A DNA stretch of 64,000 nt from a virus (lineage: Duplodnaviria > Heunggongvirae > Uroviricota > Caudoviricetes), in IMG/VR virus record IMGVR_UViG_2541047873_000001. One strand, written 5' to 3'. The translations under genes and the position numbers were made by a program. Positions 3,152 through 34,986 of this stretch are shown piece after piece (within the stretch, counting starts at the first letter, position 1; each line of letters starts with the position of its first letter). A model generated the notes under the pieces. That model did not search any database. It was not told where the DNA came from and saw nothing but the letters and a program-made list of their open reading frames with translations.

Positions 3152-3758
3152 ATCTAATTATGTTCTTCTTAATTATGATGAGTTAAACGAAAAGGGGCTG
3201 GCAAAACTCGTCAAAGAAATCGGTAAAGGAGGCTACAAGATAGCGAGGGTGATCCCCGCCAGTAATGGCAGGAAGAAAGACGGGATCATGACGCGCACGT
3301 TTACCCTTATCGGAATCGATGAGCAGACGATGGACGTTCAGGTTAATGATACTGGTGATATTTCTGGTGTAAAACTGAACGGAAAAATTGTTCCTTTCAA
3401 GCCAGTTAAAACGCTGATGGCTTTAGGGCAATCACTGGCTGCTTTATTTAATAAAGGCGCATCATCATTTCAGAAATCATTGGCGCGTAAGTTAGCTCGT
3501 GCGGCGAAAGATATTGATGATGGGAATAAGAAAATAAAAGGCGTTAAGTCCAATGCGCAGAAACTAGCAGAGGCAAAGGAATCTCGCGATGCGATCCGCG
3601 AGGATATTGAAAGGGCCAAAGAAAAATTAAATCAGGTGCAAGGTAATTCAGACCGCGCAACAAGAGAAACTGAAATCATTAGAACCGAGATGGCGCAGGA
3701 ACTGGCGAAAACTCGCGTATTGAAAGAAGAAATAGCGCGCCTGGAGGAAGATGCATGA
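3141..3758 (+). CDS. Coiled-coil protein, Hdf-like (homolog of DarA fragment)
   Basis: Start ATG at 3141 with an AGGAG RBS (the ORF-track start at 3117 is less likely); charged coiled-coil C-terminus resembles the central part of the next ORF. Confidence 0.4.
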   Translation: MSNKSNYVLLNYDELNEKGLAKLVKEIGKGGYKIARVIPASNGRKKDGIMTRTFTLIGIDEQTMDVQVNDTGDISGVKLNGKIVPFKPVKTLMALGQSLAALFNKGASSFQKSLARKLARAAKDIDDGNKKIKGVKSNAQKLAEAKESRDAIREDIERAKEKLNQVQGNSDRATRETEIIRTEMAQELAKTRVLKEEIARLEEDA

Positions 3759-5680
3759 TAAAGAAACCTATTCGAATAAATATCCAGTCCACTTTTGCAG
3801 ATACGCTCACTGGATATACGCCTAATCGTTGGGTGGCGGAAGATATCACCGAGGATGATTTACTTATCGAGCCTGCGACGCTGGAAGATATCGAGCTGGC
3901 CTATATGGGCAACGAAATTTTGGTAACTACCAATGAGGCAATGTTCGAAGCTTTAACCACAACAAAATTGCGGTTAGCGCAAACAATGCGAGCATTTGTC
4001 CGGGCGCTTAATCGCGGCCTGAATGGCACTGACATTGCTGCGGGTACGGATGAGGCAGGTGAATATGAAGACGGACGTAATAGTATCGGTGGGGCAATCA
4101 TTGGGCGCGTGCGCCGGGTTGCTAATATCCCTGTTGTAACAGCACAAATACCTCTAACCGATGGACAAACGACAAGCATAATTTTCCATTCTCCAACCGC
4201 AGACGGCACAAGAATTAAAGGGGATGACGAGCTGGTTGCGTTTCAGTTTCTTCTTAACAAAAGAAACGTTACGCATGTTGTTGCGCCAATCGGTGGGCGT
4301 GATGTATCTCTGAGCCAGGTGTGTCAGGCGCTTTCTAACCTCATTGAGCGTAACAGTGCAAAATTCAAAAAAGCAAAGGAGCGCCAGGACAAAATGAAGG
4401 CTGATATTGAGGGGTATCTCAATGAAGCCGACAAGCTGGCAGAAGAACGTTCTGTGCTGATTGAGCAGGTTGAAGACGCACAGCGGGGGCTGGCAGAGAA
4501 ACGCTCAACACTCAATGATATGCAGAATAAATTAGACGCACAAAAAGCCCTTAACGCGGAATTGCAGGCTAAGCGCGATAATTTATTGTCAGCTAAGAGC
4601 CAAGGAACTAAAGAGCGTGCCTTCAATGATCAACTGCGACACATAAAACATAATCTTGCTACAGAAGGCCAAACAACGCTGGATAATGGTGCTGTAGTTA
4701 AGTATGTCACGTCAGGCAGTGATAGCTTTGTCACGATTGAGGCACCAGAAGGCAATTTCAGTATTGATGTCAGTGCTGTTAAAGGTGGGAGTTCAGCGGA
4801 CGCTGCAACCAAATTACTTAAAGCCTATCGTGAACATAATGCTGATCAATACAAAGTGGATGTGTTGCCGGGCCAGCCTGAGCCAACTGATCAGCCGCAG
4901 CCTGAACAGGAGCCACAACCAGCATCACATCCTGATCCCCTGGAGGTTGGTAAATATCGCTATGCGCTACAATCTCGCCCGGCGGGTGTTGGTGCGGTTC
5001 CTGAAGGAAATAAAGCTGTACTTGACCGTCCTGATCAGGCTGATCCGTATTACGAATATGCTCGTCACGGAATCATTACGTATGACCGCAAACTGACAGA
5101 CGAAGAAGTCAGTCAGTACGAATTACGCTATCTGCCTGATGACGATGAACTGAGAGGGATGGCGAACGAGCTGGTTGCGTCCAGCATGGTAAAACATATT
5201 GATGGCTATGTAGATCTGTTTGGAAGTGACCTGAAAACATTCAAGGCGCAAGTTAAAATTCTTTTCCGCAAAGCGTTCCCGAACGTGGCATATCCACTTG
5301 GTGATGGGGAGAACCTTTTCATTATGGACGTGTATAACGCCCTTCAAAATCATTCAAGCGAAGTAAAAACAGATCCTGTAGTTGAGCCAGAATCGCAACC
5401 TGCACCAGCACCAGAACAGGAGCCGGAGCCAGAAGAAGCGGGTGAATCAGCAAGCGAAGCTGACCAGGAAGCAGATAAAGCGCTTGAGTACCTGAAATCC
5501 GTTCCGGAGCAGTTCACATCCCGCGATCTGACGGTCATAAGTGCTGAACTTGATCATGTGCAGGAAGCTGCAAACGCTCTTATCAGTGCTGGTCGATATG
5601 ACGAGAACGAAGCAACTGTAGGTGCAGCCGTTGACTACCTGATCAATATTCTGGCTGAAATTCAGCAGGGAGGTGCTTAA
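3755..5680 (+). CDS. darA: DarA-like internal head / antirestriction protein
   Basis: 641 aa, close to the ~639 aa I recall for P1 DarA; coiled-coil centre and PE/PQ-rich linkers; sits in a lydAB-hdf-darA-ddrA-ddrB-like order. Assignment is positional plus size, not motif-based. Confidence 0.5.
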   Translation: MIKKPIRINIQSTFADTLTGYTPNRWVAEDITEDDLLIEPATLEDIELAYMGNEILVTTNEAMFEALTTTKLRLAQTMRAFVRALNRGLNGTDIAAGTDEAGEYEDGRNSIGGAIIGRVRRVANIPVVTAQIPLTDGQTTSIIFHSPTADGTRIKGDDELVAFQFLLNKRNVTHVVAPIGGRDVSLSQVCQALSNLIERNSAKFKKAKERQDKMKADIEGYLNEADKLAEERSVLIEQVEDAQRGLAEKRSTLNDMQNKLDAQKALNAELQAKRDNLLSAKSQGTKERAFNDQLRHIKHNLATEGQTTLDNGAVVKYVTSGSDSFVTIEAPEGNFSIDVSAVKGGSSADAATKLLKAYREHNADQYKVDVLPGQPEPTDQPQPEQEPQPASHPDPLEVGKYRYALQSRPAGVGAVPEGNKAVLDRPDQADPYYEYARHGIITYDRKLTDEEVSQYELRYLPDDDELRGMANELVASSMVKHIDGYVDLFGSDLKTFKAQVKILFRKAFPNVAYPLGDGENLFIMDVYNALQNHSSEVKTDPVVEPESQPAPAPEQEPEPEEAGESASEADQEADKALEYLKSVPEQFTSRDLTVISAELDHVQEAANALISAGRYDENEATVGAAVDYLINILAEIQQGGA

Positions 5681-22300: not shown

Positions 22301-23172
22301 TGGCATACCGTTTATTCAAGGGCAGAATGAAAGCCTTTAGCAATATCGATGATATTGAACGGATGTTTAATCAGGTCAAGATCGCCAAAATTAAGACGAA
22401 GATCGAAAAAACACGTTCTGCGCTGGTGGCCTGGCGCGATGCATTGTTTGAGCAATATAAATCACTCAGTGATGCAGATGGATGGGCGGCATTGGAACAG
22501 TTGGCGAATAATGGGGTAGATGGAGCGAAACTCGCCATAGTCCAGGCTGATAACCCCCTGGAATCACCGGCAGCACAGTGGATTAAGGTGGGGGCTGTCA
22601 TCAATGCATTTGATGAAAAACACATTAGTAAGGACGATTTTGCTGATGCTGTTTCTGTTAATCGCCTGGTAGAAATGGCTACCCGCCGCGCCCGTGAGTT
22701 GAAAGACGGTGACTATGTGAATGAGTTGCCGGATGCGCTCAAATCAGCAACGTGGCAAGACTATGTATCGCTGAAAAACGGCGGGGCAACCGAATCAGAG
22801 ATCGCGGAAAGGCTTGAACAGGCTGAAAGCAAAAGAGAAGAGCAGGCGGCAGTGGCTGAAGCCAGAGCTGATGAAGCGGCGAATGATGACTATATCATTG
22901 TGGTTAATGATAAGCCGATTCGCGCTAAGGCGCGTGTTCGCGGGCGCTGGTGGAGTGTCAGCGAGGACGTCGGTGCGGTTTATCTCATTGCCGACCAACC
23001 TGGTTCCTCGACAATACGGAACGCCAAAGACGCGATTAAGAAGATTGGCGGGCGTTTCTGGAATTTTGAAGCAAACCCGGTTGCTGATGTGAACTTTGAC
23101 CGTCCTGCATGGATGGTATCTACGCGTTACTCGGTAGATGAACTGCGTAAAATAATCGCCGATGCGGCCTAA
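16321..23172 (+). CDS. darB: DarB-type antirestriction protein (N6-adenine methyltransferase plus DExH helicase)
   Basis: 2283 aa; SAM motif EPSAGTGIF and NPPF-like GNVPFG; Walker A GFGTGLGKTTTA and DEGHNYRN box. Start is uncertain (TTG at 16321 or 16336). Confidence 0.8.
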   Translation: MRGLPLDKIIDSISQATSIGALIEIVSRLHKPRAVVTFGVKKVDGVSIQKTRRTANNAAVDLLNSLPPGFDGAKLTDEQRQILAGYTGEGGLTDGEGSQYEYYTPQFMAEGIWDLFGDYGIDSGHVLEPSAGTGIFQETKRQGMIMTSAELSPISGRINQLLHPEDDVNIGAFEALAAKDAMYDHAVGNVPFGEGRSGVAGLDPAYANEKNVGNYFVLRTIDKVKPGGLIVLVVPNGMTDGTKYKKLRDKVSRKAEFLGAHRMPSGTFSESGTDTVVDVWVLRKHPETFLEMIPDTDDATLKSANVLWDTFLKGKWFTTEGKRFVYGDMERTSFRNTLVVKKDGRVSNESMKTALSRRFESRINWDLLGVTTQAWQGAKVGDKRLVGGIWHEFDGLKWVKDTTTKSSALDVSRYGVSTFGDLQIAFQSTNGILALSWDQISAIASDYPSVVSDEVAAMIRFAGKQREKDRERVMRGALIGQLINKALDLRNLGVNVDDKLADASRLAAAEVAKYGPPHAIKLNGLAEAGAKNWMTFTGNVKQDGSTSDLLAGRLDVTDGAAGIDFTRPEQVIAHLFSDVALNPITLGDFREAFAGELPEDDDAALEYLAKFDDIAIDGYGCLLPMDRATSGDIVTKTALLVGWRDASTGEQKANFERQLAKIEEKRIFTPLNKVTVNLNARWLDRRLIKEFLAEQGYDEFKYTEPDLKVVDGILVSPDDYEGKDGVFTGYQLRTVNGKNGNEFKKANNKDGFLNQLENYLNGVKPRGQNANEYLDKIAQLEVSFNDWLRTHPQADQIARDYNDAFNGFIPFTHSNAPLGLEGISGKRIPLTYQNEEVRRLSEDGRGIMGFGTGLGKTTTALALEAYNFETGRTKRTCIVVPKAVYQNWYHEAQSFYSADAFANMMFIGLDEVRDDSGNILTAPVLDENGEPRLDSNGQPLTRNVVKESASAVIVQRMNMIPSSNWRTVIMTKEQFASIPLREKTIEENSQQAVFNAVEMGRLDLASGKHRDAQKKNKIKDQAANTGTTKKQNIPYFEDMNFDSVIADEGHNYRNSFNAGREAGQLAYLPNPAVSKMARDMAVKAAYMMKRNNGRGVVMLTATPLVNSPIDAFNMLSTVIPQEEWMRMGIITPDDFVRVFGKTATVQVQKISGEVEEKQGLVGFQNLDGLRGIFHRWTTLKTAADVGATVKIPDIVENTLQIPMTGEQEAAYEELRKRAQELSSKDALTVDENGHITNEKPDDFIFSIIRDMDKVAIDPDLYASAITFQFPVELADKVKAIADALPKVAGGKVADDADEAEEDGAGGLVSTRTSKVVKTTFSEHPAHVEIRASIELEAEILKAIAAAGIDMQQVSHPIPPKYAALIENLREGLKNGKQIVFIDEKAQHQKLRRIIASALQMPEQEIGIINATTVSQAGGIKLKKVNKPTEPTPNKNGEYKEGAWETYYSKLAQYEDYLSAKNDAGLEGMEGIAADYNEGRTRIIICNKKAEVGINLHIGTTDIHHLTLPWTPASIDQRNGRGARVGSPQEKVNVHYYCGKGTFDDFRLDTLKRKKDWIKMVMTSDMSEIANGDADDADERAIMLAANPEERRAIMARQAQEREERLKLKAQREANNALDIYLKAANAAGKDIGMMETELKSAMEQIEYYQRNLDDLIKAGTNRNGQKFALEQLSSYRKRARVLRFAITRAKDADTIMKRSRGDVERAIKSGVLDISIDVIQNPQEYMRTDKNILLHKGSYYRAVIDDRETTAIVRVEKIDGEKAQYLCRIAWLDRASRYARSPGSIVTLPFDSVIEAVTFEEGVAESRATAARGVQCHQLSTILTRDQFYDAIRNGVMNVIAGKPGNAWGGGSAIKYWAYRTDDGQIALSSAYDGVIGQKIGRASDIAPERWIYPDGNDEALKREVAKIQASDNPLNIVDGEGFLQALYGYDYIQGMQAWGAQATMDDVVQEFENWMAGRGLSGRSLNKVTSEDILSLFRKPSGEGLESFWRTVLAYRLFKGRMKAFSNIDDIERMFNQVKIAKIKTKIEKTRSALVAWRDALFEQYKSLSDADGWAALEQLANNGVDGAKLAIVQADNPLESPAAQWIKVGAVINAFDEKHISKDDFADAVSVNRLVEMATRRARELKDGDYVNELPDALKSATWQDYVSLKNGGATESEIAERLEQAESKREEQAAVAEARADEAANDDYIIVVNDKPIRAKARVRGRWWSVSEDVGAVYLIADQPGSSTIRNAKDAIKKIGGRFWNFEANPVADVNFDRPAWMVSTRYSVDELRKIIADAA

Positions 23173-23208
23173 CAGATAAGGAGCGGCCCCAACCGGGGCC
23201 GAATTTGA

Positions 23209-23643
23209 ATGACGACATTAATTGACACTGTAAAACCGACGGAATCCTACCTTGAGGACATTTTGCCGCAGGCGCTCAATGGCAGGAGTGAAGAGGCGTT
23301 TCTGGATGCATATCTGGATGGCATGGCGGAAAGGCTGAAAAGAGATCCACAGCTTTATCATCTTTATGGGCCGTGGTGGCCTGCGCTTAAAACGTTATTG
23401 CTGGAGCGTGGCGACATATCATTTGGACAAGTTGTAGATAGTGATGTGGCAGAAATCTACAAAATGAGTCGCCCGGCGCTTACGGTTTTAGCCGGGCATC
23501 TGTATTCGAGCGATCGCCTGGAAAATGACGCGGTATACAATCCCGTTCATGCTCTGGAAGTCGCGCCTTATGCTGATGATACAGAGCCATACGTATACAC
23601 AAGTTACGACGAGTCTATAGAGAAATATCGAATCGTGGGGTAG
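23209..23643 (+). CDS. Hypothetical protein
   Basis: 144 aa with RBS, directly after darB. Confidence 0.4.
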   Translation: MTTLIDTVKPTESYLEDILPQALNGRSEEAFLDAYLDGMAERLKRDPQLYHLYGPWWPALKTLLLERGDISFGQVVDSDVAEIYKMSRPALTVLAGHLYSSDRLENDAVYNPVHALEVAPYADDTEPYVYTSYDESIEKYRIVG

Positions 23644-23645
23644 CC

Positions 23646-23906
23646 ATGCGGAAGAATCGTAGGTTTACGATCGACGACTTAAAAGCGTACTCACAAGGGA
23701 AGGGATACGCCCTTGAATACCACCGTTATAAGCGGGTATTTACCCTGCGGCATATAGAAAACCCTTCGAAATGGGGATGGATTTATTTTCCGCACACTGA
23801 CGATAAGCTGGTGGGACTTGTTGATGATTTATCCTATGAAGGATGGATGATTGCTATCGACAAGGCGGTTACGGAAATTAACGAACCTGATAAAATAAAC
23901 CATTAA
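23646..23906 (+). CDS. Hypothetical protein
   Basis: 86 aa, tightly coupled to the upstream ORF. Confidence 0.4.
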   Translation: MRKNRRFTIDDLKAYSQGKGYALEYHRYKRVFTLRHIENPSKWGWIYFPHTDDKLVGLVDDLSYEGWMIAIDKAVTEINEPDKINH

Positions 23907-24080
23907 AAATAACAAGTTGGGTAAATGACATACAATTTACCCGGCTTGTTGACCCGCATCACCATTTACTCTAAAAACAAGTCCGACCTGTTGCATCCGC
24001 CTATCTCTTCAGTAGTATTCCCCTCGGTTTTGATAAAACTAACGCTCTTGTTATTATCGTGTTCATGATTTCAGGAAGTT

Positions 24081-24094
24081 TGTGTTAGAAATTT
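24081..24094. promoter_or_regulatory. Operator-like site (TGTGTTAGAAATTT)
   Basis: Reverse-orientation copy of the dispersed motif, overlapping the start region of the VRR-NUC gene. Confidence 0.5.
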
Positions 24095-24095
24095 G

Positions 24096-24539
24096 ATGCG
24101 AAGACGCAGGCATCATAGTGCGTATTCTGAAATATCCCCGCACGCTGCTGCACTGAGAGAGTTAGAAAGAAATCCTGACTTATTAAAACGGAATTACGAA
24201 CATTACGAACAGGTTCGCGTTCTGGATTGGCTGTATCGCAACATGCGATACGTGTATGAGCACACACACTCAACACCGAACGGCGGCCTGAGAGGCAAAA
24301 GGACAGCCATTAAGATGGTGGCAGAAGGTCAGAAGAAGGGCTATCCGGACCTTTCTATTGACCTTGCTCGTGGTGGGTATCACGGAATGCGCATTGAGAT
24401 GAAGCACGGGAGAAACCGTCTGACTCCCGAACAGCTCGTCTGGATGACTCGCCTCACGGAAGCAGGCTATTACTGCTTTGAGGCGCGCAGTGCCGATGAA
24501 GCCATAAAAGCTATCACGGAATATGTAAATCTTGATTAA
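24096..24539 (+). CDS. VRR-NUC domain nuclease
   Basis: GYPDLSI...GMRIEMKHGRNRLTPEQLVWM matches the VRR-NUC PD-(D/E)xK signature. Confidence 0.6.
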   Translation: MRRRRHHSAYSEISPHAAALRELERNPDLLKRNYEHYEQVRVLDWLYRNMRYVYEHTHSTPNGGLRGKRTAIKMVAEGQKKGYPDLSIDLARGGYHGMRIEMKHGRNRLTPEQLVWMTRLTEAGYYCFEARSADEAIKAITEYVNLD

Positions 24540-24553
24540 ACGGAGAAATCGTT

Positions 24554-24754
24554 TTGCGTTTACTTAACGTGGCTGAACTTATCCCTGCCGGTGCTAACGT
24601 TGTTGCTCGTCGCTGCTCATGGCCTCATTCTTTCTGTATAGAGCTTAAAAAGATGGATGATGGGGCATTAGAAGCCCGAAACATAGTTACCGGCGACAAG
24701 GTATGCATTACCCCGGAAAGCGCGAAAGCCAATGATTGGGAGTTTGTTCATTGA
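24554..24754 (+). CDS. Small DUF2829-like (Tad2-like) protein
   Basis: 66 aa, AELIPAGANVVARRCSW...AKANDWEFV; TTG start with GGAG RBS (GTG at 24569 is an alternative). Confidence 0.4.
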   Translation: MRLLNVAELIPAGANVVARRCSWPHSFCIELKKMDDGALEARNIVTGDKVCITPESAKANDWEFVH

Positions 24755-25062
24755 GCAGAAAACACCACGTAAATCTGACGTTTGCTGATGACGCCGGAAG
24801 AACCAGAAGCATAACCATGAAAGTTGCTTCCAGGAAAGTAACCGCGCCACTTATACGAGAGGCCGTAAGTGAACTTGATATGAGTGAGAATGCAGCTCTG
24901 TTATCGGTAAGCTGGCTGGGGAAAATGACGGATCAGGAATACTCGGATGGTATACCCCACGGTGAGCGGCAGATAGTAAAGCGCGCGTTTAGAATTTCAG
25001 AGGTAGTTGTCGTACTGATAGCTTTGATTTATATGGCATACATGCTACTCCAACACGTCTAA
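24736..25062 (+). CDS. Hypothetical protein with C-terminal TM anchor
   Basis: 108 aa; C-terminal VVVLIALIYMAYMLL hydrophobic helix. Confidence 0.35.
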   Translation: MGVCSLSRKHHVNLTFADDAGRTRSITMKVASRKVTAPLIREAVSELDMSENAALLSVSWLGKMTDQEYSDGIPHGERQIVKRAFRISEVVVVLIALIYMAYMLLQHV

Positions 25063-25073
25063 ACGGTCATAAA

Positions 25074-25097
25074 CCCGCCAGTTGGCGGGTTTTTTTG
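25074..25097 (+). terminator. Rho-independent terminator
   Basis: cccgccagttggcggg hairpin plus a T8 run. Confidence 0.7.
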
Positions 25098-25135
25098 TTG
25101 CCTGAGTCTTTTTATTGAAATTGCATACTAATAAA

Positions 25136-25153
25136 ATATGTTAGAAAACTAAT
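25136..25153. promoter_or_regulatory. Operator-like site (ATGTTAGAAAACT)
   Basis: Motif copy ~20 bp upstream of the 402-aa gene. Confidence 0.45.
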
Positions 25154-25172
25154 TTCAAGAAAGGGAACAAAC

Positions 25173-26381
25173 ATGAGTCAGCAAGTAGAATCATCAAGCC
25201 TGGAGATCATCTCAACCGCAATTGAAACGCTGCGGACACAAATCGCGCTTATACAGAAACGAAATCCGGGCGATGACCTGTCAAAGCGACTGCATGAGAG
25301 CGTCATTGCCACTACAGATAACCTGGTGGCGGAAATCAACCAGCTCCTTGATGATGGGGCAGTTGATTACAATAAGCTGGTGGATCAGTTTGAGGAATAT
25401 CAGCAAGCCGTTAATGATGGCTTGATCCGTTTTTCTCAAGTCACTGGTGTATCAGCGACAGTTGAAAGCCTGGGGGATGCAGTTAATCAATTTGCCGCGA
25501 ATATGCGTAATGAGATCGGCAATCTGGAGGCGCGTCTTGAGCAGGCAAATACACTGCGCAAATCTGCTGAAGTCGATTTGAGTCGTTACAAAAAAGACTA
25601 TCCGCCAAGCCTGACAAAACGACTGGATGTTGCGGAGAAAGATAACCGCACGCTGAAAAGAGAGCGTCGGGAACTAAAAGAGCGTTTAACCAAGCTAAAT
25701 CAGCAATGCGTTGAGTATCAAGGCGAACTCGTCACACTGCGTAAAAAGTTAGCAGCGGCGCAGAGCATTATTGAAACATTGAAACGAGAGTGCTCAGAGC
25801 TTGGTCATGATCTGAATCGCGCCTGTGGCATGGGGCAAAGGCCAGAGACATTCCCGCTAATGTATGACGGAAGAGAAGCTATTGCCTATATCCATGAGTT
25901 TCCGCATGGTCTGGTCGCGGAGACTGGGCAACGTGGCGAAGCGTTGCTGACGGCAAATTACCATCAGCAAATCAGAACCAGCCGCCTGCTGACGATGGAT
26001 GTGATCCCGTCAGTATGGGGAACGCCGCTTTACTACCGAATTCCTGGCTTCGAAACTGACTGGAATACCGACATAGACGAATGTCTGGCAGATAAAATTA
26101 TGGCGTACCTTGAAACGGATTTTCCACGCTTGCATCGCCGGATTATGGACTCTAAGGATGCACCGATCGACGAATTGAAAATGCGTCCAGAGACGTTGGA
26201 GGCAATCAAGCAGACTGAGTTTGATACAGTGTTCAGTGTGGCCTGCATTCCAAGCAGCTTTCATGAAAGCATTCCGTTCATGCAGGGCGATCGCCGTCAG
26301 GAAATAATTGATGCTTGCCGGGTATGGGCGAACGAGTGGGATAAGAAGAACGGTGGAGTTGAAAATCTTTACGGGAAATAA
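25173..26381 (+). CDS. Coiled-coil protein of unknown function, bracketed by operator sites
   Basis: 402 aa; long coiled coil (residues ~100-210) and a globular C-terminus; good RBS. Confidence 0.5.
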   Translation: MSQQVESSSLEIISTAIETLRTQIALIQKRNPGDDLSKRLHESVIATTDNLVAEINQLLDDGAVDYNKLVDQFEEYQQAVNDGLIRFSQVTGVSATVESLGDAVNQFAANMRNEIGNLEARLEQANTLRKSAEVDLSRYKKDYPPSLTKRLDVAEKDNRTLKRERRELKERLTKLNQQCVEYQGELVTLRKKLAAAQSIIETLKRECSELGHDLNRACGMGQRPETFPLMYDGREAIAYIHEFPHGLVAETGQRGEALLTANYHQQIRTSRLLTMDVIPSVWGTPLYYRIPGFETDWNTDIDECLADKIMAYLETDFPRLHRRIMDSKDAPIDELKMRPETLEAIKQTEFDTVFSVACIPSSFHESIPFMQGDRRQEIIDACRVWANEWDKKNGGVENLYGK

Positions 26382-26415
26382 TGTGTTAGAAAATTAAAAT
26401 TGTTTTTCTAACATA
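26382..26415. promoter_or_regulatory. Palindromic operator pair
   Basis: tgtgttagaaaattaaaattgtttttctaacata: perfect inverted half-sites gttagaaaa / ttttctaac. Confidence 0.6.
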
Positions 26416-26532
26416 TTGATTATGTAGTTAACTTAACATAGAATTTTTCGTGCTGGTGGGGAGCTTCCCATGTCGCTTGCGGGTTTGATAGTCACTTCAT
26501 TGTCTTTCCCCACCAGCATCAAACAATTTTAA

Positions 26533-26546
26533 GTGTTAGAAAGTAA
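26533..26546. promoter_or_regulatory. Operator-like half-site (GTGTTAGAAAGT)
   Basis: Motif copy 120 bp downstream of the palindromic pair. Confidence 0.4.
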
Positions 26547-27726
26547 ATTTTAAGGTAAGGGAAAGCTCCGGCACCGTGCAAATACATGCCCGGCAGGTTT
26601 AGTGCGTAAAGTGGTTTCAGCGAGAGCATTTTACGGAGTAAACGACAGTGACTTGAGCCACGGAAGGTCTTTTTATGGTGTTCATTGATGATGATCTGGC
26701 AGTGAGTATGTTAAGTGGGCCAGGCTGCATCGGGTCATCATCAGTGCACATCCTCAACGTTAAGGAGGCGCAGAGTTGGGTTTTCCTCTTATTTTGCTGA
26801 CTCTGAGTCTCCTTAACGTTGCGGTAATGCACCTATGCGGATGTGGCCTTGCATTGTGTCTTGAAAGAATGGGGTAAGGCCGGGGATATTCCCAGGGGGA
26901 GGCACCCCCGCTGCAACGAACAGCCATAGACGGCAGTCGAGTGATGAAAACGTGAAAAGACTTTAAACCTCGTTACGGCTGGCGTGGCAAACGCGACAAC
27001 CGGGATAGGACGGTGACGGGCGGAGAGAGAGCCGCTTCAAGATAAAAGCCGACTATGGATTCCTTTCTGCGGGCCTTTGAAAGTGAATCTTGCTCAGGCA
27101 GTCGGCTTTTATGTTGATACGTAGCGATAACCGCGACAGGCGCGGCGGTAAGTATGGCGGGGTTATTCCTTCCCCGTTGAGGACACCGAGTTGCCAGGTT
27201 GACCATACGCCTAAGTGGCAATACCGCGAGTGGGATATTTGCCCACCTTCGGGTGGGTGTTTTTTCAGTGTTTTCGTCATGGTTAGCGACTTTGCGGCGG
27301 TTTAGAACCCGACCATTAAAGTAAATGCAAACGATGATCTGATGATGGTAGCGGCCTAAGAAGCCTGACGCCACGGGGTATGAGTCGTCCCCCGTCAAAA
27401 AATCGACCGCAGAGTGTCCCCGTCTGTGTATTAGGGAACGGGGAGGCATAACAGGCAAGGGCGCTGGTGTGATTAACCAGATGAATGAGAAGGGTCAGGT
27501 CTTTCTGGTCAGCGCCCTTACCTGTTACGTCCCTCCCGCGTAACAGCCATTGGTTAATGGCTTTCTGGGATAATGTCTTGTAACGGGTATATCCCGTCAT
27601 GCTGAAGGCGCTAATCACGCTGGAAGCCAGGGTTATGCATCCCCTGTTACCGAATTGCAGCCAGGGCGCGGTGCGCCGAAAAGCATACGGAGGTGGAAGC
27701 CCTCGCCGGAGACGTACCCGGCAAGT

Positions 27727-33569: not shown

Positions 33570-34607
33570 TTACCAGAGTTTTGCCGCGTACATCGTTTGT
33601 GTGAATGTGTACCCATAGCGTTCTTCAACGCTTTTACCGTATTTTTTCCTGGCTTCAGTAAGGCGGATGCCTGTCAGGTCATCGCCGGAGGCAATCATAA
33701 CTTCCAGTAGTTCCAGGTCCATTTTATCCAGCCTTGCCATTGCATCTTTAGCCTCTTGAATTTTCCGGCTAACGATCTGGTGTATGGCTGGATCGGCTTC
33801 GGCCAGCATTTTATCTGATTTGTTTTTTAAACTCTGATTGCGGATATCAATGTTTCTCAGGATATATGACTTCACGACATAGCTTGGCTGCTGCTTTTCC
33901 AGATCACGAACCCGATAAAGGTCAAATTCGCCGAGAAGTCCGCACGGAAGCGGTTTAATGCCAGTGTAAATGGTAAGGGTGCGGCGCTCACCAACGTTGT
34001 TAACAACGGGAATCTCTGTGTTTGCTTTTTTTGCAAAGATCAGCGCACCGTGCGTACCCACTCTGAAGCGTGAAAGTCCATTGTTGCCCTCGATATTGGT
34101 GGTAATCACCACATCGGTATAACCTTCTTTTCTTGCGCGGTATACCTCGCCCTCACGTTCAGCGGCGAAGAATCTGCGTTCTTCTTCAAGCGCACCGACA
34201 ACCTGTGAAAATATCCTGTTTTTCATGCTTTTCTTTATAGTTTTATCGTATTTTTTCAACAGGTCTTCGCGCGTAAATGTTCTCGTTGTGGTTGCGCTTT
34301 GCATAACGATATGCGTACTCTGATTAGTATCCTCAACAATGAATGGGATCGGTAAATAAACCGACTCAACAATGTTTGAGGCTTTGTCATCATCCTTGCG
34401 ACACAGATCAACAAAGGCTTTCCATTCGGCTACGCATTTTTCAGCTTCTTCTAATACAGCCGGATCATGTGTTAATGCAACATGGCGAAATTCCTCGCCA
34501 ACATAACTGGTATCATGGAAAACAGAGTTTGCGACCACCAGCTCTTTCCACCGTTCAGCGGTTTGCAGGAACCGTTTGTACTCATTCTCGATCGACTTCT
34601 TACTCAT
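33570..34607 (-). CDS. Candidate C1-type immunity repressor (positional inference only)
   Basis: 345 aa (ATG at 34607, MSKKSIENEY; the ORF-track N-terminal extension crosses operator sites). Divergent from the recombinase gene, with operator copies in its 5' region; sits between pacB and the lox-like site where c1 lies in P1. Confidence 0.35.
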   Translation of the reverse strand: MSKKSIENEYKRFLQTAERWKELVVANSVFHDTSYVGEEFRHVALTHDPAVLEEAEKCVAEWKAFVDLCRKDDDKASNIVESVYLPIPFIVEDTNQSTHIVMQSATTTRTFTREDLLKKYDKTIKKSMKNRIFSQVVGALEEERRFFAAEREGEVYRARKEGYTDVVITTNIEGNNGLSRFRVGTHGALIFAKKANTEIPVVNNVGERRTLTIYTGIKPLPCGLLGEFDLYRVRDLEKQQPSYVVKSYILRNIDIRNQSLKNKSDKMLAEADPAIHQIVSRKIQEAKDAMARLDKMDLELLEVMIASGDDLTGIRLTEARKKYGKSVEERYGYTFTQTMYAAKLW

Positions 34608-34623
34608 TATTCCTACTCGATTT

Positions 34624-34637
34624 AGTTTTCTAACATA
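34624..34637. promoter_or_regulatory. Operator-like site (AGTTTTCTAACATA)
   Basis: Motif copy 17 bp upstream of the candidate repressor start. Confidence 0.5.
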
Positions 34638-34710
34638 AAAGTCCTGTGACAAATTTATGCCGAATAACAAGGTGAGTAAAGGATAAAACCGCTTTTTTTT
34701 GATTGTTCCT

Positions 34711-34722
34711 ATTAGAAAATGT
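34711..34722. promoter_or_regulatory. Weak operator-like half-site (ATTAGAAAATGT)
   Basis: One-mismatch variant of the motif in the repressor/recombinase intergenic region. Confidence 0.3.
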
Positions 34723-34802
34723 AACCAGGAGCGGCTACCGCATGGCTGACGGATTTGCGAAGTGATCTGGTCGGTGTTTTTTTGGGAAAAAGTCCCGATT
34801 TC

Positions 34803-34834
34803 TAACTTTAAATAATTGGCATTATTTAAAGTTA
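34803..34834. other. rox-type recombination site (14-bp inverted arms, 4-bp spacer)
   Basis: taactttaaataat-tggc-attatttaaagtta is the reverse complement of the rox sequence TAACTTTAAATAATGCCAATTATTTAAAGTTA as I recall it; 150 bp upstream of the Cre-like gene. Confidence 0.85.
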
Positions 34835-34986
34835 GGCTATAATCTCCAGTAAACAGGCAGTATTGACAAGGATGAAAAATCATGCCTCGAATCAAAGGCT
34901 TGAATTTTGAAAATTAACTTATAACTACCCTGTCAGTTTTCTATTTTTCACGTAGCGTTATCTGTATATAGAGGTTTAATAGTTTC

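Follow-up and report, generated by a model that had tools for sequence, protein, structure and literature searches.

What does a compact group of three genes, headed by a putative repressor operator, contribute to the element that carries it? The question is raised by positions 24,081 to 25,062 of a 64,000-nucleotide stretch of DNA (the window) from a virus assigned to the Caudoviricetes (IMG/VR record IMGVR_UViG_2541047873_000001). The genes encode a VRR-NUC nuclease, a 66-aa protein and a small membrane-anchored protein, and a first-pass annotation had proposed that the nuclease is paired with a ligand sponge and directed against host or competitor nucleic acids or signalling. The evidence assembled here points in another direction. 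The segment is probably an operon of the lytic phase that serves DNA maturation and head completion and is held weakly by a repressor. It is also likely to be the D6-lineage counterpart of the pmgL-pmgM and pmgR-pmgS gene sets of phage P1, here joined in a single compact transcription unit. Neither the genes nor this type of regulation is new, both having been described for D6 and P1.

The locus and its counterparts in D6 and P1

By its sequence, the window is a D6-like phage-plasmid of the P1 family. D6 itself is a plasmid prophage of that family. Over 3.2 kb around the operon the window is 86% identical to Escherichia phage D6 and 99.2-99.9% identical to seven non-mobilizable plasmids of 90-94 kb from E. 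coli and E. marmotae, and the same stretch is matched by 113 plasmids in PLSDB. The D6 annotation (NC_050154) lists the three genes as orf12-orf11-orf10, described in turn as 'similar to P1 pmgM', hypothetical and 'similar to P1 pmgR'. D6 and the window have in common the three genes, their order, their placement between ulx/orf13 and pmgS, the operator core, the terminator and the downstream operator. They differ in the intergenic leader and in the N-terminus of the nuclease, whose start is annotated in D6 at a TTG 50 nt upstream. Identity between the two is 71% for the 66-aa protein and about 50% for the PmgR-like protein.

In P1, the homologous nuclease and PmgR domain are found in two C1-controlled units, LPpmgL/O26(Op82)-pmgL-pmgM and OpmgRa/b(Op86)-pmgR-pmgS. 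There pmgM and pmgR are 2.8 kb apart, with pmgN-pmgQ/ppp between them, and each adjoins C1 operators, whereas in the window their counterparts belong to one unit. P1 is without a homologue of the 66-aa protein. The features of the locus and the operators discussed below are collected in Table 1.

Table 1. Coordinates in the window of the operon, its predicted signals and the related operators
Feature	Position	Strand	Details
Stem-loop	23919..23942	+	GGGTAAAT...ATTTACCC, 8-bp stem, directly 3' of the orf13-homologue stop
Alternative candidate promoter	23991-24018	+	TTGCAT-16-TAGTAT, conserved in D6
Sigma-70-like promoter, predicted	24030..24057	+	TTGATA-16 nt-TATTAT, TG upstream of -10
Monovalent degenerate operator	24081..24096	+	TGTGTTAGAAATTTGA; 2 mismatches to TGTGTTAGAAAATTAA
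VRR-NUC nuclease, P1 PmgM homologue	24096..24539	+	147 aa from ATG 24096; TTG 24093 one codon upstream
66-aa protein, D6 orf11 homologue, phrog_7206	24554..24754	+	TTG start 8 nt after GGAG
PmgR homologue, 103 aa	24751..25062	+	TTG start overlapping stop of 66-aa gene (ATTGA)
Intrinsic terminator	25071..25099	+	AAACCCGCC-AGTT-GGCGGGTTT then TTTTTGTT
pmgS homologue operator, strong copy	25137..25152	+	TATGTTAGAAAACTAA; D6 copy identical
ant homologue operator	14178		gene C1-controlled per P1 annotation
lpa-pacA homologue operators	30162/30180		genes C1-controlled per P1 annotation
c1 homologue operator	34622-34637		gene C1-controlled per P1 annotation
pmgT operon homologue operators	45856/45874		C1-controlled per P1 annotation
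ref homologue operators	50904/50922		gene C1-controlled per P1 annotation
hrdC homologue operators	62654/62672		gene C1-controlled per P1 annotation

The nuclease

The assignment of the first gene to the VRR-NUC family, made in the first-pass annotation from the letters of the DNA, is borne out by three comparisons. Pfam PF08774 (VRR_NUC) matches with 26.2 bits against a gathering cut-off of 23.8 (E=9e-6); the match spans only profile positions 45-114, and the N-terminal part of the protein is backed by the alignments with PmgM and psNUC. The protein is 56% identical to P1 PmgM. The closest solved structure is that of psNUC (PDB 4QBL; E=1.1e-16 over residues 39-147), and the alignment includes the GYPD...IE.K active site and the beta1-beta2 insertion. 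The catalytic residues expected of a PD-(D/E)XK nuclease, a Glu in helix 1, the Asp of G-x-P-D and Glu-x-Lys, were compared in eight sequences, namely the window, D6, P1, four metagenomic lineages and 4QBL, with numbering from ATG 24096. Q39, D85 (of GYPD), E101 and K103 are invariant in all eight. All seven phage-plasmid sequences also have E35, in a column that lies outside the 4QBL fragment used. The window protein thus has the full set of E35, D85, E101 and K103, together with Q39. The gene is under purifying selection, with a dN/dS of 0.025 against D6.

The stand-alone VRR-Nuc protein psNUC is a dimeric Holliday-junction resolvase that binds four-way junctions with sub-nanomolar affinity, cuts them symmetrically and spares linear duplex DNA (PMC4103454). 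It shares with the window nuclease both the active site and the beta1-beta2 insertion. The phage-plasmid VRR-NUC proteins, unlike psNUC, have a basic N-terminal tail of 15-35 residues. On these sequence comparisons the window protein groups closest with the Holliday-junction resolvases of the psNUC type.

Organization of the proposed transcription unit

The three genes are tightly packed. A 14-nt gap containing GGAG separates the nuclease gene from the 66-aa gene, which in turn overlaps the third gene by 4 nt (TTGA), and neither a promoter nor a terminator was predicted between any of the three. The arrangement recurs elsewhere: the order darB-ulx-orf13, then VRR-NUC, 66-aa gene and a gene for a protein of ~100 aa with a transmembrane helix, then a terminator, then operator-pmgS, is found with overlapping stops and starts in the lineages L006 to L010, although the 66-aa protein is only 33-45% identical there (in L008 the third gene was not called). 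Co-transcription, on which the reading of the segment as a mini-operon depends, is therefore strongly implied by the short gap, the overlap and the conserved coupling in other lineages.

The unit ends in a hairpin with a 9-bp stem, six of whose pairs are G-C, a 4-nt loop and a following T-run (TTTTTTTGTT); the 70 nt 3' of the stop codon, within which it lies, fold at -17.9 kcal/mol in RNAfold. This is the strong terminator noticed earlier from the sequence, and it falls just outside the end of the segment as then drawn. Hairpins with T-runs also follow the third gene in D6, L007, L008 and L009, and L006 has a G+C-rich hairpin without a T-run. Searches of Rfam returned only sub-threshold leader matches, which were caused by the terminator hairpin. 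L006 (positions 3497-4900) is without pmgS: there the three genes lead into a 65-aa ORF, with lpa (PF25716) directly beyond it. The unit can therefore occur without pmgS beside it.

The tight linkage of a nuclease to a small protein could be read in a different way, as a toxin and its antidote. The nuclease would then be toxic, the 66-aa protein its inhibitor, and the membrane protein would act in superinfection exclusion. VRR-Nuc domains do occur in antibacterial toxins of type VI secretion systems (T6SS) that have immunity genes next to them (PMC9635880), the translational coupling in the window is tight, and the linkage of the nuclease to the 66-aa protein is strictly conserved. However, the P1-type lineage, which has pmgM, lacks any counterpart of the 66-aa protein, the closest solved relative of the nuclease is specific for junctions and leaves linear duplex alone, the third gene has its homologue in a morphogenesis gene, and no similarity to immunity proteins of the TsiV type was seen. 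A toxin-antidote or exclusion system is thus highly improbable.

The tail-anchored PmgR homologue

The frame of the third gene is open upstream to 24736, and its start is placed at TTG 24751 because of the alignment with P1 PmgR and the annotation of D6. Residues 3-66 align with positions 6-70 of the 72 in phrog_3177 (E=7.9e-10), a profile that P1 PmgR matches at 4e-47. A direct BLASTP comparison with P1 PmgR gives 28% identity (E=9e-8). Pfam and PDB searches with the PmgR family found no significant relative. In P1, PmgR is essential for head completion: a phage deleted for pmgR makes tails and leaves its heads incomplete, a defect that can be complemented, and the protein is without known relatives (PMC9024508).

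The window protein differs in architecture from P1 PmgR, a small soluble protein of about 72 aa that is without a membrane helix. Its C-terminal extension carries a predicted transmembrane helix at residues 82-100 (nt 24994-25050), with a Kyte-Doolittle mean of 2.42 over 19 residues, so that the description of the third product as a small C-terminally anchored protein holds. Basic residues precede the helix, which gives a tail-anchored topology. An extension of 35 aa with a hydrophobic helix is present in all five D6-type lineages, with Kyte-Doolittle means of 1.97-2.52 as against 0.88 in P1. A structural model built from the single sequence has a low confidence (pLDDT 61); it shows a long C-terminal helix, and no other part of it was relied on.

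The 66-aa protein and the case for counter-defence

The second gene had been introduced as a stand-alone DUF2829-like ORF. The ORF is real: it matches phrog_7206 (E=3.7e-43), its dN/dS against D6 is 0.155, indicating purifying selection, and its length of 66 aa is kept. The DUF2829 label, on the other hand, stays below every family threshold. The protein belongs to a family of 66-76-aa proteins whose identity falls to 33% and in which G13, R19, W23, G47, A59, D61 and W62 are invariant. The relatives found are all on contigs of 24-92 kb from P1/D6-type elements, and among 50,697 phage records the protein was seen in D6 only. The family is always located between the pmgM and pmgR homologues. P1 PmgL was considered as a relative and is unrelated on comparison, and weak matches to P0012-P0014 were disregarded as repeat proteins.

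No Pfam family other than Tad2/AcrIIA7 (PF11195, DUF2829) is matched by two or more members of the 66-aa family. The window protein has no Pfam match even at E<=10, and the relative P0010 aligns with PF11195 from end to end (residues 1-64 to positions 1-72 of 73), with 13.1 bits against a cut-off of 25 and E=0.15. Comparison with Tad2/AcrIIA7 sequences by hhalign gives a probability of 1.5-2.2% (P=0.02-0.03). The alignment is collinear over the full length and pairs the G..R..W motif and a C-terminal A.DW-plus-4-residue motif, both of which are common to the two families. Searches for relatives of the 66-aa protein found no bridge to PF11195, a profile search of the PDB sequence set returned no Tad2 chain, and no match came from comparing profiles with the short N-terminal DUF2829-like repeat of P0077.

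The structural comparisons are similarly marginal. The model of the 66-aa protein (pLDDT 84) has the element order H-E-E-E-(E)-H-E, a short helix and a small SH3-like beta-barrel; the predicted order of an N-terminal helix, beta strands, a short helix and a final strand matches that of Tad2, in which an N-terminal helix precedes an antiparallel beta1-beta5 sheet and alpha3 comes before beta5. A fold search of BFVD with this model gave as top match a 66-aa DUF2829 protein (E=0.011, probability 0.99, 26% identity), and two further 'Tad2-like' proteins are among the top 40. With Foldseek against the PDB, no Tad2 was among the top 50. In SPO1 Tad2, the ligand gcADPR is contacted by W25, N26, W73 and D79 (bioRxiv 10.1101/2023.05.01.538930). 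Only the counterpart of W25 is kept in the hhalign alignment, as W23. The residue after W23 is variable, the tryptophan of 'NGW' (W73) falls in a gap, and the short helix is without a conserved Asp, so that N26, W73 and D79 are not kept. The beta2-beta3 loop and helix alpha2, the dimer element of Tad2, are missing from the model. From these profile and model comparisons it is about an even call whether the 66-aa protein is a distant, minimal homologue of the Tad2-like/DUF2829 proteins. A sponge function does not follow from such distant homology.

These results bear directly on the idea of a counter-defence unit, in which the 66-aa protein would be a Tad2-like sponge for a Thoeris or CBASS signal and the nuclease would attack host or competitor DNA, both being expressed on derepression beside darB-ulx. 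Apart from the PF11195 and BFVD matches and the collinear alignment with its shared motifs, the idea draws on the position of the genes directly 3' of darB and ulx. However, all of the scores are sub-threshold, most of the ligand contacts and the dimer element are missing, and the family is confined to one group of phage-plasmids, where it lies between two homologues of P1 genes of the pmg series. The nuclease clusters with junction resolvases, not with toxins, and no PADLOC defence model matched any of the three proteins. The proposal of a nuclease and ligand sponge aimed at host or competitor therefore does not stand up well to the pmgM orthology of the nuclease, the marginal link to Tad2 and the PADLOC result, and a counter-defence role for the pair is improbable. 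It is quite improbable, too, that D6-type phage-plasmids have recruited the 66-aa protein as a reduced Tad2-like sponge, or as some other binder of small ligands or nucleic acids on the Tad2 scaffold, to be made with a junction nuclease on derepression in a compact early counter-defence unit beside the Dar anti-restriction genes.

A dispersed operator family and its probable repressor

The operator ahead of the nuclease is one copy of a dispersed family, which was detected by a k-mer scan followed by a pattern search over the window. The 16-mer consensus TGTGTTAGAAAATTAA has 18 sites at three or fewer mismatches where 0.67 are expected, a number that none of 100 shuffles reached. Its 9-nt core, TGTTAGAAA, occurs 14 times against an expectation of 0.58. 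Long ORFs leave 5.3 kb (8%) of the window free, and thirteen of these cores are there; the fourteenth is just upstream of the point where homology starts in a c1-like ORF. In five regions the operators form inverted pairs with an offset of 18 bp, resembling the bivalent operators of P1.

The c1-like ORF (33570-34895, minus strand) encodes a homologue of the P1 repressor C1, with 21% identity (tblastn E=1e-5). From its TTG the ORF has 441 aa, and homology to the family begins only at residue 97. Because the 5' extension contains an operator copy and no family homology, the gene probably begins near 34607, preceded closely by an operator for autoregulation. As in P1, asymmetric operators are scattered over the element and precede the same genes, among them the homologues of ref, lpa-pacA, hrdC, ant, the pmgT operon and c1 itself (Table 1). 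The P1 operator consensus ATTGCTCTAATAAATTT differs from the window motif and is not matched anywhere in the window; the element uses an operator motif of its own. Given the C1 homologue and the synteny of the sites with the operators of P1, we conclude from the sequence that the dispersed motif is the operator of the lineage's own C1-type repressor, to which that repressor would bind. In P1, pmgL also has a late promoter. A second motif in the window, of the Lpa late-promoter type, was sought through shared intergenic 9-mers and repeats of the CCGGTAG type, and nothing convincing was found.

The strong operator copy at 25137 would mark the start of the next C1-controlled unit, that of the pmgS homologue, separate from the mini-operon. 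Directly 3' of the pmgS-like stop there are three more operators (26382+, 26400- and 26532+, within 26382-26547), including a perfect consensus copy paired with an inverted copy at an offset of 18 bp. They presumably control the next unit downstream.

The operator and candidate promoters ahead of the nuclease

The operator does overlap the TTG 24093/ATG 24096 start of the nuclease gene, as had been noticed from the sequence; TGTGTTAGAAATTTGA has its first base at 24081, where the segment as then drawn begins. The leader has an in-frame TGA at 24066, and the start must therefore be one of these two codons, inside the operator. The site has a perfect 11-nt core, TGTGTTAGAAA, but its two mismatches to the consensus fall where the strong sites never vary. 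No copy of the family is weaker: this one scores 19 bits if included in the training set and less than 6 bits with a leave-one-out matrix. In D6 the equivalent site, TGTGTTAGAAAAATAG, is in the same place and keeps the core in a leader that is otherwise divergent. L006, L007 and L008 also have operator-like sites, in either orientation, no more than 40 nt from the start of VRR-NUC; L009 has no clear site there. Conservation of the core in D6 and the presence of operator-like sites in three distant lineages argue that the 24081 operator is functional but weak.

The best predicted sigma-70-like promoter, both in the 186-bp gap ahead of the nuclease and in the region 22800-26600, is at 24030-24057. 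It matches at 10 of 12 positions, and its extended -10 (TGt) is identical in D6. Promoter-like sites as a whole are not enriched (6 found against 5.4 expected). Relative to this promoter the operator is about 24-39 nt downstream of the -10, or at about +17 to +32, a position comparable to that of OpmgRb in P1, which is 20 nt downstream of the pmgR -10. In D6 (L001 4844-4900) the TTG annotated as the start of the pmgM-like gene falls within the best predicted promoter, and the reading frame runs on across the operator; no canonical in-frame start was found downstream of the operator. With the D6 start in the spacer of a promoter of the 24030 type, the candidate at 23991-24018 may therefore be used as well or instead.

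The spacer of the 24030 promoter holds a CTAACG element (24036-24048) that is conserved in the window and in D6. The element aligns with good operators in reverse orientation upstream of VRR-NUC in L007 and L008 (TTTTCTAACG). In the window and D6 its A/T run is inverted and it no longer scores as an operator. The alignment suggests that operators have turned over between lineages.

The same features can be put together differently. The 24081 site might be a decayed relic, or a chance occurrence of the core. The genes would then be free of the repressor: the sigma-70 promoter would drive low constitutive expression, or transcripts running on from darB-ulx-orf13 would bring late expression. The site is the weakest of its family, with two otherwise invariant positions changed; it is monovalent, as against the pairs with an 18-bp offset in several other regulatory regions, and it is downstream of the predicted promoter, not over it. 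The hairpin after orf13 has no T-run, and L009 lacks a clear site near the VRR-NUC start. On the other side, exact TGTGTTAGAAA is retained in D6 amid diverged surroundings, three other lineages have sites close to the VRR-NUC start, all 14 core copies of the window sit in regulatory gaps, and P1 has operators at comparable positions, OpmgRb being an example. A relic or chance site is, on balance, unlikely.

The flanking genes

Upstream of the operon are genes for a 2283-aa DarB-like methylase/helicase, a Ulx-like protein and a homologue of D6 orf13. Downstream, the PmgS-like gene (25173-26381) matches phrog_1660 (E=3.8e-143). The stem-loop at 23919 is probably the boundary between the darB-ulx-orf13 unit and the mini-operon. 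It was listed as terminator-like on the minus strand, and a T-rich tract follows it on that strand. D6 (L001 4725-4748) has an identical GGGTAAAT/ATTTACCC stem with a different loop. On the plus strand no T-run follows the hairpin, and because of this we only infer a terminator; by its sequence the hairpin may act as a terminator that is weak or works in both directions, or may serve RNA stability. An ORF of 47 aa at 23925-24068 was set aside as non-coding leader, having no family match and being unannotated in D6. At the left end of the window, a nearly identical direct repeat of about 50 nt (containing GTTGCAGCATTGCCGGTAGTGCTCTGATTACC) occurs at 1-60 and 640-700, 642 nt apart, and its second copy falls inside an ORF at 70-1464.

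A model for a probable lytic-phase operon

A consistent picture can be drawn for a lytic-phase operon of DNA maturation and head completion. In the prophage state, the C1 homologue would damp the unit, which would be turned on once the repressor is inactivated. Transcription would begin at a sigma-70 promoter in the 186-bp gap and read through the weak single C1-type operator, which would cover the ribosome-loading region. The nuclease, presumably a dimer, would cut Holliday junctions and forks, by analogy with psNUC. Cutting of junctions would let branched intermediates of replication and recombination enter headful packaging. The 66-aa beta-barrel protein made from the same message would be a probable accessory factor, and the tail-anchored PmgR homologue would act in head completion, as its relative does in P1. 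The transcript would end at the hairpin and T-run at 25071-25099, leaving the downstream pmgS homologue under its own stronger operator. Other phages have junction-resolving nucleases that debranch DNA before or during packaging, namely endonuclease VII (gp49) of T4, endonuclease I of T7 and Rap of lambda. Their folds are unrelated or distant and their regulation is different.

Several points weigh against this model. Repression through the 24081 site may be weak or absent, because of the two changed positions and the low leave-one-out score. The promoter assignment is ambiguous, the D6 start codon being within the predicted promoter. Read-through from the upstream darB operon may occur, because the 23919 hairpin is without a T-run. 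A membrane anchor on a factor of head completion is unexplained. Finally, P1 pmgM is dispensable for lytic growth (PMC10695390), and a role in packaging is therefore unproven even in P1.

Annotation and significance

The current RefSeq annotation calls exactly the 147-aa nuclease CDS from ATG 24096. The two genes that start with TTG, for the proteins of 66 aa and 103 aa (24554-25062), are missing from it. In the nearly identical RefSeq plasmid L011 (NZ_CP085065.1, 40646-41277) the 633 bp between the pmgS-like and VRR-NUC CDSs are left without an annotated gene, and in an older PLSDB table the nuclease is truncated to 75 aa.

What is new here is an explicit operator consensus for the D6-type lineage, with which the early regulon can be mapped, the absence of the second and third genes from RefSeq annotation, the membrane anchor of the PmgR homologue, and a weak assignment of a Tad2-like fold that is cheap to test. 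If that fold is true, the sponge family would be extended to a minimal form of 66 aa. The membrane-anchored form of the essential PmgR is a handle on where head completion happens. The main value of the results is a better annotation of a widespread group of phage-plasmids of E. coli and Salmonella.

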